Source of the DNA: a virus
UHGV virus genome: UHGV-2124687
Length of the DNA: 13,465 nt
Strand: one strand, 5' to 3'
Shown in pieces: positions 1,992 to 5,605 of this stretch. The notes beneath the pieces were generated by a model. The model saw only the letters and a list, made by a program, of their open reading frames with translations, was not told the origin of the DNA and did no database searches. The translations under genes were made by a program, and so were the position numbers. Within the stretch, counting starts at the first letter, position 1; the number at the start of each line of letters is the position of its first letter.

Positions 1992-2178
1992 TGGCACGCA
2001 CCATCCTGAGTAAAGATTCCGTGTGATCGAGAGCTGCCTTCTGTTGTTCGTAAAGTGCTTCAAGTTCAGTTGTAAGGCGGTCGCGAAAAACAGGAACGCT
2101 TAACTGATAAATAAAATTATTTACTGAGCTTTCCACATCAGGATCCTCGTCCGGTATAACTGGCTGTGAATTTTTCAT
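1984..2178 (-). CDS. Hypothetical acidic early-left protein (64 aa), first gene of the leftward operon
   Basis: ATG at 2178-2176 (MKNSQPVIPDEDPDVE...) is preceded by GGAGGG (2187-2182). Upstream in-frame starts of the track ORF (to 2244) fall inside a terminator hairpin. I recognise no family. Confidence 0.5.
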   Translation of the reverse strand: MKNSQPVIPDEDPDVESSVNNFIYQLSVPVFRDRLTTELEALYEQQKAALDHTESLLRMVRANG

Positions 2179-2190
2179 AAACCCTCCGGT

Positions 2191-2220
2191 AAAAAAGGTG
2201 CCCATTGTGGGAGATGGGCA
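2191..2220 (-). terminator. Intrinsic terminator immediately upstream of the first leftward gene
   Basis: Read on the minus strand: TGCCCAT-ctcccaca-ATGGGCA (7-bp stem, 2220-2199), then CC and TTTTTT (2196-2191). It ends 3 nt before the SD of the 2178 gene. Confidence 0.6.
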
Positions 2221-2255
2221 AAGACCACGCGGCACACACAGCAATTAATCACATC

Positions 2256-2321
2256 TGCAAGCGCACTCCGCCTGTTTCACGCCTGTCACCCATAACTGGT
2301 AAGTGAAGGAGTGCGCTTGCA
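2256..2321 (-). promoter_or_regulatory. Long perfect hairpin (14-bp stem) in the leftward leader
   Basis: TGCAAGCGCACTCC (2256-2269) is the exact reverse complement of GGAGTGCGCTTGCA (2308-2321). The 38-nt loop can form an extra inner stem of about 7 bp on the minus-sense RNA. No U-tract follows on either strand. Confidence 0.5.
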
Positions 2322-2333
2322 TGTTGCGCCCTG

Positions 2334-2383
2334 AAAAAGGCTGGCGGTTACCGGAAATACACGGGAAAACACCGGGCCGCCAG
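2334..2383 (-). terminator. Second (upstream) intrinsic terminator on the leftward strand
   Basis: Read on the minus strand: CTGGCGG (2383-2377) pairs with CCGCCAG (2347-2341), with an inner CCGG/CCGG pairing. CC and TTTTT (2338-2334) follow. Confidence 0.5.
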
Positions 2384-2545
2384 AACAGGGGTCTACTTCT
2401 TATTGCTTTAGCCTGCTTTTAACCACATCAGGCGCGGTGGATCCTGCTATTCCCCAACAGTCAGGAATGCGATAATCTGGACATCCGAGGTAGATTGATC
2501 AGATGGTCAATCATCAGCCAATTCAATTGCAAAGGCACATCGACC

Positions 2546-2809
2546 ATGGTTTCACTTATTCGAAATAAAGGTAATACATCCACGGGTGTGCACATGCTTC
2601 AAAGGTCTGGCAAGCAATTCAAATTCCGCTGCGATATGGATACTTTGAAACGCCTGACATCTAGAAGCGTCAAACCAGAATTTGAGTATCTTTTTCGTAA
2701 GCGAACTGATGGCGTTTATCATTCAGAACTTTTTGATTCAATTGAAGAAGGAAAAATTGTTCTTTGTCAGTTTGTTCAAAGAGTTACTGGAGAACCATGT
2801 ACCGCCTGA
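2546..2809 (+). CDS. Orphan hypothetical protein (87 aa from ATG 2546; track ORF starts at TTG 2495) between the leftward operon and the repressor gene
   Basis: This is the only sizeable ORF in the AT-rich stretch 2495-3050. It runs opposite to both neighbours. A good plus-strand terminator follows 54 nt downstream. The SD is weak, so the start is uncertain. I recognise no family. Confidence 0.4.
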   Translation: MVSLIRNKGNTSTGVHMLQRSGKQFKFRCDMDTLKRLTSRSVKPEFEYLFRKRTDGVYHSELFDSIEEGKIVLCQFVQRVTGEPCTA

Positions 2810-2862
2810 ATATTGGTTAACTCAGCTACCTATGATCAGAATGTCCAGATTATTAAAGAGCG

Positions 2863-2892
2863 AAGCGTCCAGTAGGGCGCTTTTTTGTTTTT
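2863..2892 (+). terminator. Intrinsic terminator of the 2546-2809 transcription unit
   Basis: AAGCGTCC-agta-GGGCGCTT forms an 8-bp stem with one G-U pair, followed by TTTTTTGTTTTT. Confidence 0.7.
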
Positions 2893-3053
2893 GGCCCTGT
2901 ATCGCCAGGGTAAGCGGAACATTTGATTCTGAGTAATCACTGCGTGTGGTTACTTGATGGAATAAGGTTAAGATTGCTAACCAAGTTTGGCAAGTTGTTT
3001 TTGGTAATAAAACTAAACAAAAGAGACGTAAGAAGATAACTTACTGAAAAAGG

Positions 3054-3461
3054 TTATTTTTTTTCTGTTCGTTTGCGGGCTTTTAGGAGTTCTTCGAAGA
3101 GCTGGTTGAAGTTTTCAACTCGAGCCCGGAGATTTTGGATTTGAGCTTGTTGCTCTGATTCTGGCAAAGAGCGATAGAGCTCAAGCATCTCTTGTTCATC
3201 AACGCTTAAAGTTCTCTGCTCTTCAATTGAGACTGGTTCTGCAGGAGTCTGGTCTTCATCACCAAACAAAATCCAAGTAGGGCTGCACTGGAGCACCTTA
3301 GCAAGTGCATGCAGGTTCTTACCTGAAGGCTCTGTGTTGTCACTTTCCCATAGCGAAATAGTGGCGTGCGATATCCCGAGAGCTTTTCCAAGATCTCGCT
3401 GCGTTAACCCAACATCTTTGCGTCGACGTAATACTCGACGACCTAAAGTTTCACTATTCAT
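3054..3461 (-). CDS. CI-like prophage repressor, HTH (XRE/Cro-CI) domain only, no S24 peptidase domain
   Basis: 135 aa. The N-terminal part (LRRRRKDVGLTQRDLGKALGISHATISLWESDNTEPSGKNLHALAKVLQCSPTWILFG) is a classic XRE HTH. The remaining ~65 aa are a charged helical tail (…EQQAQIQNLRARVENFNQLFEELLKARKRTEKK). There is no room for a LexA-like autocleavage domain and no matching motifs. The gene is divergent from a cro-like gene. No SD precedes the ATG. Confidence 0.8.
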   Translation of the reverse strand: MNSETLGRRVLRRRKDVGLTQRDLGKALGISHATISLWESDNTEPSGKNLHALAKVLQCSPTWILFGDEDQTPAEPVSIEEQRTLSVDEQEMLELYRSLPESEQQAQIQNLRARVENFNQLFEELLKARKRTEKK

Positions 3462-3543
3462 GTTTAGATATCTTAATTCTTCTTGACTAAAGAATTCTCA
3501 CCAAATAACCTTGTTAAATAAACTCAACAAACGAGGTTGCTTA
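3462..3543. promoter_or_regulatory. Divergent PRM/PR-type promoter-operator region
   Basis: 82-bp AT-rich spacer between divergent repressor genes. It contains the perfect palindrome AGATATCT (3466-3473). It also contains the dyad AATTCTT-N8-AAGAATT (3475-3496), which encloses a consensus-like -35 TTGACT (3483-3488). I could not place the -10 elements confidently. Confidence 0.5.
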
Positions 3544-3783
3544 ATGTACAAAATTGATGCCGTGAAATTTTTCGGCACAAACACTCAAGTGGCACATGTT
3601 GCTGGCGTCGACCGCTCTGCTGTAAGTCAATGGAAAGAACTTGTTCCCGAGCGCTGTGCTCAGCGTCTCTCTGATGCCTCAAATGGCGCACTCATCTACG
3701 ACAAAGACGTTTATGACCGTTACCGCCAGGCCAAACGCCTTGGTAAACAGAATACCTGCATAACCAAGAAGGAATCTGATTGA
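3544..3783 (+). CDS. Cro-like / YdaS-family DNA-binding protein
   Basis: ATG 3544 with GAGG 7 nt upstream. The 79-aa product (MYKIDAVKFFGTNTQVAHVAGVDRSAVSQWKE-LVPERCAQRLSDASNGAL...) matches the YdaS/Cro pattern (..AVSQW....vP..ra..ie..T.G.l). It sits opposite the CI-like gene. Confidence 0.65.
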   Translation: MYKIDAVKFFGTNTQVAHVAGVDRSAVSQWKELVPERCAQRLSDASNGALIYDKDVYDRYRQAKRLGKQNTCITKKESD

Positions 3784-4259
3784 TGAAAATCAACGAGATT
3801 AAATTGCTGGCCATCGAGCTGGAAGAGTGGGCGATGAAGGATGGCAGGAAAGGGGGCTGGAAAAAGATAGTCCCGCTGATTACAGCGCATCACTACGGTG
3901 ATTTGCTGGACAGCCTGACAGATATCGTGGACCCGTCAGAGTATGTGCGCCGCCTGCATAACAACACGCAGATCATCCAGCGGGCATTTCGAAATGACAC
4001 ACCGAACTATCGTGGCCAGGCAGCTGCGCTGGCGCCAGCAATCAAAGCTGCGATGGATGCAGAGCTGGCTGGTCAGCATGACTTACATAACCTGGTGGCC
4101 ATTGCGAACCGCGAGTGCATCGAGGCGACCAGTGCAGTGCTGACTGGTAAGCCAATGCAGGTAATCCGCAAAGAAACGGCAGAGGCAATTCAGGCTCTGG
4201 CCGATCTCATCCCCGGCGTCAGCATTCAGTTCAACCATATTGGTCCACGCGCGGCGTAA
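3783..4259 (+). CDS. YdaT-like protein (CII-position regulator)
   Basis: ATG 3783 overlaps the cro-like stop (TGATG). The 158-aa product lies directly after a YdaS-like gene, as in Rac ydaS-ydaT. Its size and position match the YdaT family, which has been reported as a CII functional analogue. The family assignment is from memory only. Confidence 0.45.
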   Translation: MKINEIKLLAIELEEWAMKDGRKGGWKKIVPLITAHHYGDLLDSLTDIVDPSEYVRRLHNNTQIIQRAFRNDTPNYRGQAAALAPAIKAAMDAELAGQHDLHNLVAIANRECIEATSAVLTGKPMQVIRKETAEAIQALADLIPGVSIQFNHIGPRAA

Positions 4260-4271
4260 CAGGAGGCTCCC

Positions 4272-4514
4272 ATGCTTGCCCAGGAATTAGTAGACCGCAT
4301 GAAAAATGCGATGAAGCACAAAGTACCGGCGGAGACAGTCGATCGCAGCGCTGAAATGATTCCGGGGATGAAATACCGCAACGAACGCGGACGCATGGTG
4401 ACGGTAATGAGAGTTTCTCATCTTCGGGTTATGTACCGATACGAAGGTTATCAGGACATCTGCGAGACCAGCCGCAGAGAGTTTGATTTGAAATTTAGAA
4501 AGGTGCAGTCGTGA
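4272..4514 (+). CDS. DUF4222-like small protein
   Basis: Strong SD AGGAGG 5 nt upstream. The 80-aa product contains YRNERGRMVTVMRVSHLRVMYRYEGYQDICETSRREF, which resembles the DUF4222 pattern found between cII-like and replication genes of enterobacterial prophages. Confidence 0.5.
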   Translation: MLAQELVDRMKNAMKHKVPAETVDRSAEMIPGMKYRNERGRMVTVMRVSHLRVMYRYEGYQDICETSRREFDLKFRKVQS

Positions 4515-5605
4515 GCAGCAAATTACACGGTCTTGTATGGGAAGGGTGCGCTCCTGCTGGATTGGGAATTTCCCGCGTTGCGCTTATGGCCCGCCTGGCT
4601 GATTACAGCAATGCTGACGGCATATCGTGGCCAGCGATTGAGACGCTCAGGATTGAGATCGGCGCTAAAAGCGATACGACAATAAAAACTGCTTTAGCTG
4701 AGCTTGTTAAGGGCGGCTGGATTAAAAAAACAGAACGCAAGCTGGGTGGAAGAAATCTGACAAATGTTTATCAGATTGATATCGCAAAACTCGAAGAAGC
4801 GGCAGCAGAGGGGCGTAAAAAAATACGGGAAGAGAGAGCCAAAAAGAAAGGTTCCCGTTGCCTGCCAGCAGGGCAGGAAGATAAGGCGTCAATTTTTGAC
4901 CCGTCAAATAATGACCCCTTAAAAGAGGATGGTAAGGGGGCAGATTTTGACCCGTCAAAAATTGAGGGGTCAAAAATTGGTGAAAACAGCGATTTAACCC
5001 CCCCAAAAATTGACCCCGATCCGTCATTAAAACCTGATCCGTCATTAAACCCCACACATAACACGCGAGGGGGAGAGGTCGAACCAGTTCATAACAATCC
5101 GGTTCCTGAATATCCCGGACAGCCTGGTATGAATTTTCCCGCCGGAGAGTCATTTGGGAAGGTCCCAATGACCATTGACTGGAAACCGTCGGCTGACTTT
5201 CGCCAGCGCGTTGGATTCTGGGGCATAACGATCCCGGATGGACTGAACCTCAGAGGCGAGCTGAACAGCTTCATTGCCTACTGGCAGCCAGAGAATAAAG
5301 TTTTTTACCAGTCGCAGTGGGAGCAGAAATTTGCCCGCCACCTGCAACAGGCCAAACCCACTAAACCGCGAGGTAACTCACATGCAGGACTGGATCCAAA
5401 CTCCACAGCAAACGCAGCTGTACAGCGAGCACGCGCAGCACACGCTGCACAACTCCGCGCTCGAGGAGAAGGCGTGGAAGTTCTGGGTTCTCATGCTGGA
5501 AATATACTCCAGCCGGTGGGAAACCAAAAACGGATCGGCTCCGTCGGACCTATGGATTGCTCAGATTGGGAATTTGACCAGCGACCGGATGACGAGCGTC
5601 TGTAA
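4511..5605 (+). CDS. Replication initiator (lambda O analogue): N-terminal winged-helix domain plus DnaT-like C-terminal domain
   Basis: GTG start overlaps the upstream stop (GTGA). The N-terminus (SRVALMARLADYSNADGISWPAIETLRIEIGAKSDTTIKTALAELVKGGWI) is a wHTH typical of phage replication proteins. The segment IDWKPSADFRQRVGFWGITIPDGLNLRGELNSFIAYWQPENKVFYQSQWEQKFARHLQ parallels E. coli DnaT as I recall it ([20 protein letters not shown]...[31 protein letters not shown]). The true C-terminus is uncertain; see the overlap finding. Confidence 0.75.
   Translation: MSSKLHGLVWEGCAPAGLGISRVALMARLADYSNADGISWPAIETLRIEIGAKSDTTIKTALAELVKGGWIKKTERKLGGRNLTNVYQIDIAKLEEAAAEGRKKIREERAKKKGSRCLPAGQEDKASIFDPSNNDPLKEDGKGADFDPSKIEGSKIGENSDLTPPKIDPDPSLKPDPSLNPTHNTRGGEVEPVHNNPVPEYPGQPGMNFPAGESFGKVPMTIDWKPSADFRQRVGFWGITIPDGLNLRGELNSFIAYWQPENKVFYQSQWEQKFARHLQQAKPTKPRGNSHAGLDPNSTANAAVQRARAAHAAQLRARGEGVEVLGSHAGNILQPVGNQKRIGSVGPMDCSDWEFDQRPDDERL
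4893..5050. repeat. Iteron cluster: probable phage origin of replication inside the initiator gene
   Basis: TTTTGACCCGTCAAA occurs at 4893-4908 and 4945-4960, with internally inverted half-sites TTTGAC/GTCAAA. Related copies are ATGACCCC (4912-4919), the inverted GGGGTCAAAAAT (4966-4977) and ATTGACCCC (5009-5017). A tandem GATCCGTCATTAAA lies at 5018-5031 and 5036-5049, each copy carrying a GATC site. This region encodes the low-complexity linker FDPS...FDPS...DPSLKPDPSLNP. Confidence 0.7.

Follow-up and report, generated by a model that had tools for sequence, protein, structure and literature searches.

The Qin and Rac prophages of Escherichia coli K-12 provide the closest described counterparts of the locus examined here, namely the leader of the early leftward (early-left) operon in a 13,465-nucleotide (nt) stretch of the viral genome UHGV-2124687 (hereafter the window, i.e. 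the whole stretch that was analyzed; (-) denotes its leftward strand). In Qin, the dicBF leader begins at a repressor-controlled promoter and places a long hairpin and the terminator-ended small RNA (sRNA) DicF (RF00039) ahead of a small gene with a toxic product (Faubladier et al. 1990; Ragunathan et al. 2023). RNase III cuts the leader RNA at 813/814, yielding a 190-nt DicF species, from which RNase E then produces a 53-nt form; no internal promoter was found, and the DicF RNA, which ends at its terminator, predominates, with longer dicB-containing species being undetected in uninduced cells (Ragunathan et al. 2023). In Rac, KilS (b4833) is an annotated non-coding RNA in the 5' untranslated region (5'UTR) of kilR that was recovered by Hfq RIL-seq (RNA interaction by ligation and sequencing) and confirmed on northern blots (Bar et al. 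2021, PMC8175672). Two further systems invite comparison: RprA (RF00034), a core-genome Hfq-dependent sRNA, and the putL and putR sites of phage HK022, which act in a lambdoid early operon that lacks N and in which terminators precede the genes (King et al. 1996, 2011; Hwang et al. 2022, PMC9378689). The comparisons presented below make it probable, in our view, that the window leader is an sRNA-producing, RNase-processed attenuator of the kil/recE operon in a Rac/Qin-type Citrobacter prophage, and it is best read as the Citrobacter version of the known arrangement that includes DicF and KilS in E. coli.

A preliminary description of this DNA had drawn attention to two tandem intrinsic terminators and a perfect 14-bp hairpin on the (-) strand upstream of the first leftward gene, and all three structures hold up: they lie where they had been placed, two of them fold better than shuffled sequences, and all are conserved. 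Hairpin 1 (module B; 2383-2334) consists of an outer stem CUGGCGG (2383-2377)/CCGCCAG (2347-2341) and an inner CCGG/CCGG helix, followed by CC and a run of five U (2338-2334), with the flanks CCCUG (2390-2386) and CAGGG (2333-2329) being able to pair around it. Hairpin 2 (module C; 2321-2256) is a perfect 14-bp stem (2321-2308/2269-2256) with a 38-nt loop, and is extendable by ACAU/AUGU. Hairpin 3 (2220-2191), which together with the motif preceding it constitutes module D, pairs UGCCCAU (2220-2214) with AUGGGCA (2205-2199) and continues through CC into six U (2196-2191), after which come ACC, the Shine-Dalgarno (SD) sequence GGAGGG and the ATG at 2178. When compared to 200 dinucleotide shuffles per region, hairpin 2 has a free energy of -36.4 kcal/mol with a z-score of -4.65 (0/200 shuffles as good), hairpin 1 with its flanks one of -23.8 kcal/mol with a z-score of -3.26 (1/200 as good), while the hairpin 3 region is not special by energy (z-score -0.51). 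Hairpin 1 (terminator free energy -17.8 kcal/mol) and hairpin 3 (stem -9.5 kcal/mol) both have the anatomy of intrinsic terminators, i.e. a G+C-rich hairpin succeeded by CC and a U-tract. A consensus terminator scan flagged hairpin 3 alone on the (-) strand, and the total of four terminators found did not differ significantly from the 2.6 +/- 1.7 expected. As the terminator count is not above expectation and the energy of hairpin 3 is ordinary, we judged the structures to be real on the basis of their conservation.

BLAST searches with 2150-2620 recovered short unannotated matches situated just downstream of the repressor gene, with their orientation kept, in phages SfIV, Flotzy and mEp390 among others, and all three structures are retained as non-coding modules in many prophages. 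Two Citrobacter prophages, from C. braakii ATCC 51113 (L135) and C. meridianamericanus (L136), are 93-97% identical to the window near the leader, and E. coli matches to the window are patchy only. In the window the leader has the order A2, B, C, D, orf64, where A2 is a 30-nt element and orf64 the first early-left open reading frame (ORF). The corresponding order in Rac of K-12 is racR, ydaG, ydaF, sieB (on the opposite strand), a variant of A2, C, KilS, kilR, ydaE, racC and recE; that in Qin of K-12 is dicA, the dicB promoter dicBp, ydfABC, C, DicF and dicB; and an O157:H7 prophage has racR, a DUF1391 gene, a divergent gene, A2, C, DicF (Rfam, 77 bits) and dicB. Read side by side, these loci show the leader to be assembled, mosaic-like, from non-coding modules that are conserved. 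The comparison with homologous prophages, which the preliminary description had proposed, establishes the locus as a positional and sequence homolog of the KilS and DicF leaders. As with the predicted sRNA of the window, KilS comes after a sieB-type rightward gene, an A2-type element and a long hairpin, and before the first small early-left gene, so that module D, lying past hairpin C and ahead of the first small gene in an operon of the Rac kind, occupies the location typical of KilS. The window shares with Qin the long hairpin of the same family, the position of a terminator-ended RNA, here a predicted one, ahead of the first small gene, and a candidate promoter homologous to the repressor-controlled one of dicBF. 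It differs from Qin in having no DicF sequence and a first gene that is not DicB, and Qin in turn has ydfABC in its leader and no canonical A2.

The link to both KilS and RprA resides in module D. Read on the (-) strand, it comprises a seed-like motif AAUUGCUGUGUGU (2246-2234), which aligns with RprA, KilS, Flotzy, locus L005 and mEp390; an 8-nt insertion GCCGCGUG (2233-2226), seen so far only in the Citrobacter copies, i.e. those of the window, L135 and L136; the segment GUCUUUGCCCAUCUCCCACAAUGGGC, which has one base different from E. coli RprA; and ACC with the six U. The insertion and ACC aside, 38 of 39 aligned bases are those of the 3' half of E. coli RprA (rprA, L014:530-578), i.e. the string AAUUGCUGUGUGU...GUCUUUGCCCAUCUCCCAC(G/A)AUGGGC with its U-tract is near-identical in the two. 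The window copy lies in a prophage leader, whereas RprA is encoded at the ydiK-ydiL locus, and it lacks the 5' half of RprA with the stem-loops that pair with rpoS and csgD. Owing to the missing 5' half, the Rfam RprA model yields only 31.5 bits (E 0.24) in a search of 2000-3600, as against a gathering score of 70, and the module does not qualify as a full-length RprA. With KilS, module D shares the motif UGCUGUGUGU upstream of an intrinsic terminator. The full KilS motif UGCUGUGUGUAGUC is split here into UGCUGUGUGU, the 8-nt insertion and GUC ahead of the terminator, which is of the RprA type in the window and of the GGCGG type in KilS. The window additionally has an extra upstream terminator (module B), and its U-tract ends 3 nt before the SD because it lacks modules E and F, which in Rac lie between KilS and kilR.

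Across the fetched phage leaders, UGCUGUGUGUAGUC precedes terminator hairpins of at least seven kinds, including those of the KilS, SfIV, Flotzy and RprA types, a compensated GCCCGC/GCGGGC version, a DicF-type stem and longer ones. Such a constant single-stranded motif on exchangeable terminators looks like the signature of a conserved seed. By homology, hairpin 3 is predicted to be the 3' end of a KilS/RprA-like sRNA of ~65-80 nt that would start near 2258, and KilS itself would be a member of a broad family of prophage leader sRNAs that combines one motif with many terminator scaffolds; we did not find such a family described in the literature searched. The same literature held no description of the link between RprA, KilS and the phage module, of the terminator shared with RprA or of the 30-nt element heading these leaders. 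The near-identity of the 3' half of RprA and the prophage module, which extends from the motif to the whole terminator, suggests that sequence has passed between a host sRNA gene and the leaders of phages; the phage might perhaps also interfere with RprA targets. As a separate observation, the insertion GCCGCGUG is predicted to pair with UUACCGG (2192-2186) beside the SD of orf64, and could occlude part of the ribosome-binding site in read-through RNA.

Hairpin 2 belongs to a family for which a pattern search of all the fetched loci, using (A/C)AAGCGCA...UGCGCUU(C/G)C followed by (A/G)G(U/A)UGU, with the base closed by ACA(U/C)/(G/A)UGU, recovered 46 distinct instances with compensatory changes, all of which fold into long stems. 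The window copy is among those recovered, with 25 pairs and -34.8 kcal/mol. The distal parts of the stems differ between members yet stay complementary (CACUCC/GGAGUG, CAUUUCC/GGGAGUG and CACGGCGA/UCGACCGUG), and near the base an A-U pair is replaced by G-C. Coordinate arithmetic from the dicB promoter and the DicF 3' end places the cut at 813/814 in the Qin copy, at the foot of its 3' arm, and the annotated 5' end of KilS likewise falls within the 3' arm of the Rac copy. Since both of these positions lie in homologous 3' arms, hairpin 2 is most likely an RNase III site, and is predicted to be processed as such in the window. Its loop contains AUGGGU (2287-2292), a repeat of the 3' arm of hairpin 3, which could compete for the 5' arm GCCCAU (2214-2219) of that terminator.

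Hairpin 1 was found after A2 in 26 distinct leaders, three of which are truncated by a contig end, so that at least 23 of these leaders are distinct. It occurs in two allelic forms; all 14 aligned variants retain the 7-bp outer stem, with one compensatory change from G-C to U-A, and the subsequent run comprises four or five U (13 of the 14 have five). The DicF and KilS terminators are built in the same way, with a 7-bp GGCGG-type outer stem, a 1-nt bulge, an inner helix, a 3-nt bulge and C(C)UUUUU. However, DicF itself was not detected at the gathering score in the whole window or at E <=10 in 2000-3600, in a search that finds the O157 DicF with 77 bits. On this comparison hairpin 1 resembles the DicF terminator in its workings and leader position and is not a member of the DicF family. 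Between A2 and hairpin 1 lies a linker, predicted to be single-stranded, with the (ARN)4 motif AGCAAUAAGAAG (2407-2396, (-)), and this linker is kept in all leaders of the hairpin-1 type. From general knowledge of ARN motifs we infer that AGCAAUAAGAAG might be a site for the distal face of Hfq; an RNA ending at hairpin 1 would accordingly be expected to carry two features of Hfq ligands, the (ARN)4 stretch and a U-tail. A resemblance of hairpin 1 (GGCGGCCCGGTG) to the RfaH ops element (GGCGGTAGnnTG) was rejected on inspection by eye, there being three mismatches including the essential T6.

Transcription of the leader likely begins far upstream of the three structures, at a candidate early-left promoter, PL (2993-2965, (-)), with a -35 element TTGCCA (2993-2988), a 17-nt spacer and a -10 element TAACCT (2970-2965), and with a start predicted near 2958. 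Along with the next 60 nt it aligns with the dicB promoter of Qin (TTGACC-17-TAATCT) and the 5'UTR of ydfA; it also aligns with the PL of locus L005, and is kept in both L135 and L136. The consensus scan did not flag it because it matches 8 of the 12 consensus positions. An operator-like repeat AAGGTTA overlaps its -10 element (2960-2970), recurs at 3046-3056 below the stop codon of the repressor gene and is present in inverted form at 3506-3516 near the rightward promoter PR; these repeats are possible operator half-sites of the helix-turn-helix (HTH) repressor. The promoter-proximal leader (2958-2895, (-)), which has a hairpin CCCUGGCGAUACAGGG at 2910-2895, aligns as a homolog of the 5'UTR ahead of ydfA/ydaG (DUF1391) in Qin, Rac and one O157 prophage. 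The DUF1391 gene is absent in the window, and its place is taken by a rightward moron cassette. Measured from the candidate PL, the leader would be ~780 nt long; the extent assumed in the preliminary description was too short, for the best promoter candidate lies at 2993-2965, with the moron between it and the structures. A promoter within 2400-2560 was considered and rejected, as none was seen by eye or found on the (-) strand by the scan, and the one supported by homology is that at 2993-2965. More generally, neither the consensus scan nor inspection by eye revealed a convincing -35/-10 pair in 2560-2191 (-). With no consensus promoter after hairpin 1 and too little space for any promoter beyond hairpin 3, the early-left genes need read-through of both terminators to be expressed, just as had been proposed at the outset.

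These observations can be combined in the following scenario. Transcription would most likely start at the dicBp-like promoter under the control of the repressor, cross the rightward moron in the antisense direction and then enter A2 (2440-2411). A part of the transcripts would end at hairpin 1 and its five U, giving an RNA with the (ARN)4 stretch and a U-tail. In RNA that reads through, hairpin 2 would fold and be cut by RNase III, and termination at hairpin 3 with its six U would generate the KilS/RprA-like sRNA of ~65-80 nt, having a single-stranded AAUUGCUGUGUGU and a terminator able to bind Hfq. Only the minority that escapes both terminators would allow translation of orf64 and the downstream genes up to recE. 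Since only this escaping fraction would reach them, potentially toxic genes should stay low unless the promoter is strongly derepressed, and the terminators would precede the early-left genes because the leader is itself a product. The leader would yield predicted Hfq-type sRNAs and hold down the expression of kil-type genes, in the manner of the dicBF and KilS/kilR loci of E. coli, and the puzzle of terminators placed ahead of early-left genes would be largely resolved. The terminators and the hairpin can be accounted for without invoking a hidden antitermination system. With regard to the explanations that had been offered earlier, that of one or two sRNAs ending at the terminators gains support from the homology to the KilS and DicF leaders, and that of a put-like RNA fails both the core search and the covariance model described below.

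Several points weigh against this scenario. The 3' ends, the processing and the Hfq binding predicted at this locus all derive from homology. The stem of hairpin 3 is modest, with a 2-nt spacer before its U-tract, and hairpin 1 is followed by five U only. The 8-nt insertion splits the KilS/RprA motif (UGCUGUGUGU/GCCGCGUG/GUC), and hence the target specificity may differ; moreover, DicF and RprA both remain below their Rfam gathering scores. Rho would normally have access to an untranslated, partly antisense leader of such length (~780 nt), and this, together with the universal presence of A2, leaves room for active read-through. Finally, a promoter of its own was suggested for KilS by Bar et al. 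(2021, PMC8175672), and a comparable internal promoter may be present here despite the result of the consensus scan.

The prospect of active read-through directs attention to A2 (2440-2411, (-)), the 30-nt element CCACCGCGCCUGAUGUGGUUAAAAGCAGGC that heads the leader and could form an H-type pseudoknot from the helices CCAC/GUGG and GCCUG/CAGGC. It is matched exactly in more than 120 viral contigs, and of 5426 complete E. coli genomes 1548 (~29%) have an unannotated match to a 76-nt stretch that includes it; no Rfam family corresponds to it. Scans for single-position variants at three helix positions retrieved 0, 3 and 0 contigs; in two of the three variants C is replaced by U, which preserves pairing, as G.U, when the leftward strand is read but not the other. 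A compensated second helix, GCCCGG/CCGGGC, is seen only in the Rac-type version. So little variation leaves no scope for an unbiased test of covariation. A2 heads nearly all leaders of this kind, in combination with quite different downstream modules (DicF, KilS, module B or module D), including the early-left leaders of N-less prophages of the Rac, SfIV, O157 and Flotzy types. Its distance from the promoter ranges among loci from ~15 nt, as in L005 where it follows a clear promoter, to more than 450 nt. A2 could act as RNA within the leftward leader; it might also belong to the promoter or the 5'UTR of the moron on the opposite strand, or serve at the DNA level as a junction where modules are exchanged, and among phages it is directly downstream of the place where diverse morons always sit.

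One rival reading is a cis-acting antitermination RNA in the manner of HK022 put, for which the candidate would be A2 rather than the 14-bp hairpin. Under such a proposal A2 would be a new cis-acting RNA conferring on RNA polymerase resistance to intrinsic and Rho-dependent termination without N, i.e. an analog of put with an unrelated and smaller fold. If true, it would explain expression from behind one to three sRNA terminators and across untranslated leaders of up to ~850 nt. There is a general likeness, in that the HK022 operon has a conserved structured element near the start of its leader, as the window has in A2, and in L005 the separation of A2 from the promoter is like that of HK022 putL. 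The near-invariance of A2, its standing as the sole common element of leaders with different terminators, the single compensatory difference between its canonical and Rac-type forms and the variants whose G.U pairing is compatible with the leftward strand alone all speak for it, as does the lack of an N-like gene in the window. In contrast, put consists of two stem-loops of ~70 nt and A2 is a 30-nt putative pseudoknot, and the two have no similarity in sequence or model. Searches for the put cores, stem I (AACGGCGCGAC..UAAACCAUGCGUCGG) and stem II (GGCGGGYUCAGGRNGARCGGCAAU), yielded none at <=7 substitutions in the window or in leaders L002-L006. We also drew a put family from the annotated phage records of HK022, HK75, O276, phiEt88, UPF_BP1, CobraSix, S9-5, HK639 and PdC23, and built a covariance model (R1) from five putL sites. 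This model recovered the untrained controls, HK022 putR and PdC23 put, with 34.8 and 44.1 bits, and found nothing in the leader, its best window match (7.9 bits, E 3) being at 6164-6244 (+), outside it. Accordingly, an HK022 put site in the leader is rejected; put is also defined by factor-independent suppression of terminators that is blocked by mutations in the zinc-binding domain of the RNA polymerase beta' subunit. As for A2 acting as an unrelated analog, it also heads SfIV-type leaders (A2-E-F) in which no terminator is seen before the next module, its distance to the promoter is highly variable, and its loops are as invariant as its stems, which fits a protein-binding or DNA-level site equally well. 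Furthermore, Qin has no canonical A2, and the predominance there of the DicF-terminated RNA fits attenuation rather than programmed antitermination (data: Ragunathan et al. 2023). On balance, we regard antitermination by A2 as unlikely.

A protein could also be invoked, namely an unrecognized phage antitermination factor, analogous to N or Q or of another kind, acting at A2 or at a boxA-like 13-mer CGCUCUUUAAUAA (2862-2850, (-)). The small leftward ORFs without assigned function (orf64, orf61 and a Cys-rich 66-aa protein) would be available for such a role, the boxA-like sequence does follow a hairpin on the leftward strand, and the invariance of A2 at the sequence level suggests recognition by a protein. 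However, family searches and reading of the ORFs found no N-like or arginine-rich ORF and no match to an antiterminator family among the leftward ORFs of the window, which upholds the earlier statement that no N-like gene is in evidence, and any such ORF would sit downstream of the very terminators that it needs to suppress. The boxA-like site belongs to the moron cassette and is missing from the moron-free C. braakii prophage, and no boxB was seen by eye near it; on these grounds a lambda-type N/nut system was rejected. No dedicated antiterminator has been described in the characterized homologs, and to our knowledge, though no literature search was aimed at this point, no such factor is known for Rac or Qin. 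An unrecognized protein of this type is therefore, in our estimate, quite improbable. Very improbable, too, is conditional attenuation, whereby alternative pairings would decide the formation of hairpin 3 such that termination answers a signal. In the sequence, complementarity can be seen between the 5' arm of hairpin 3 and the AUGGGU of the hairpin 2 loop, as well as between the 8-nt insertion and the SD region, and the minimum-energy fold of 2185-2250 pairs CCG.GUGG (2232-2225) with UUACCGG beside the SD. Nevertheless, these pairings are short and read from one sequence, the minimum-energy folds retain both the terminator and hairpin 2, and neither a ligand-binding nor a leader-peptide feature was seen. 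Rfam likewise gave no riboswitch or leader match: nothing in the whole window at the gathering score, and in 2000-3600 at E <=10 only the sub-threshold RprA.

The genes around the leader are consistent with the attenuator reading, in that their order, when compared with Rac and Qin, identifies the window as a Rac/Qin-type immunity region of a Citrobacter prophage. A repressor consisting only of an HTH domain (3054-3461, (-)) is in the position of RacR and DicA, and is followed in the rightward direction by a P22-Cro-like Cro (3511-3783), a YdaT/CII-like protein (3780-4259) and a DnaT-like replication protein (4511-5605), each recognized by PHROG and Pfam matches. Leftward, there are three small ORFs and then a RecE-like gene (3-1472, (-)) with an open frame of at least 490 aa that continues past the left edge of the window; it is 40% identical to Rac RecE over 209 aa (E 2e-37) and colinear with it. 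The first of the small ORFs, orf64 (1984-2187 including the SD, (-); SD GGAGGG at 2187-2182, ATG at 2178), codes for an acidic protein of 64 aa that is not arginine-rich, occupies the kilR/dicB position and has no match in Pfam, PHROG or phage tblastn searches. Of the others, orf61 and the Cys-rich 66-aa ORF have no assigned function, and an identification of the latter with Rac YdaE was rejected as there is no significant similarity.

The rightward moron cassette (2495-2883, (+)) contains an ORF of 104 aa (2495-2809), without a PHROG, Pfam or phage tblastn match, and a strong intrinsic terminator (2862-2883), which when read leftward constitutes an additional, weaker obstacle to early-left transcription. 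Its position is that of sieB in Rac. The C. braakii prophage is devoid of the cassette (corresponding interval L135:3563-3741), and there the promoter is followed without interruption by ~230 nt, A2, B, C, D and the ATG; the C. meridianamericanus prophage (L136:5790-6420) has a different ORF between the same flanks. Both flanks, on the side of hairpin A1 and on that of the terminator, are conserved (window 2443-2883). Hairpin A1 (CCUGACUGUU GGGG AAUAGCAGG; 2465-2443, (-)), predicted by folding, adjoins the start of the moron. In related loci its place is always held by a different hairpin, which abuts A2 in moron-bearing phages and the complement of which, in the loci where it was read, carries the SD of the moron on the opposite strand. 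The boxA-like CGCUCUUUAAUAA in the terminator-side flank, which agrees closely with the boxA consensus, comes directly after the hairpin 2883-2862 as read leftward, and the corresponding site in L136 is CGUUCUUUAACAA; this order of a hairpin and then boxA is as in rrn leaders, and may be coincidental given that the site belongs to the cassette flank.

Other leaders contain components that the window does not have. Two more conserved modules, GUGAAUGCGGCUNAGCGCACG and CCUGGAGGCACCAGG, are found ahead of dicB, kilR or the KilS-like RNA of SfIV (L012:2440-2600, L013:3240-3400 and L002:2600-2740), and both are absent from the window. In L116, L024 and L043, tRNA-like segments with GGTTCGAATCC-type T-arms are interspersed between the sRNA modules, 30-430 nt past the start of A2 and on the same strand as A2, with those of L116 including an apparently interrupted tRNA.

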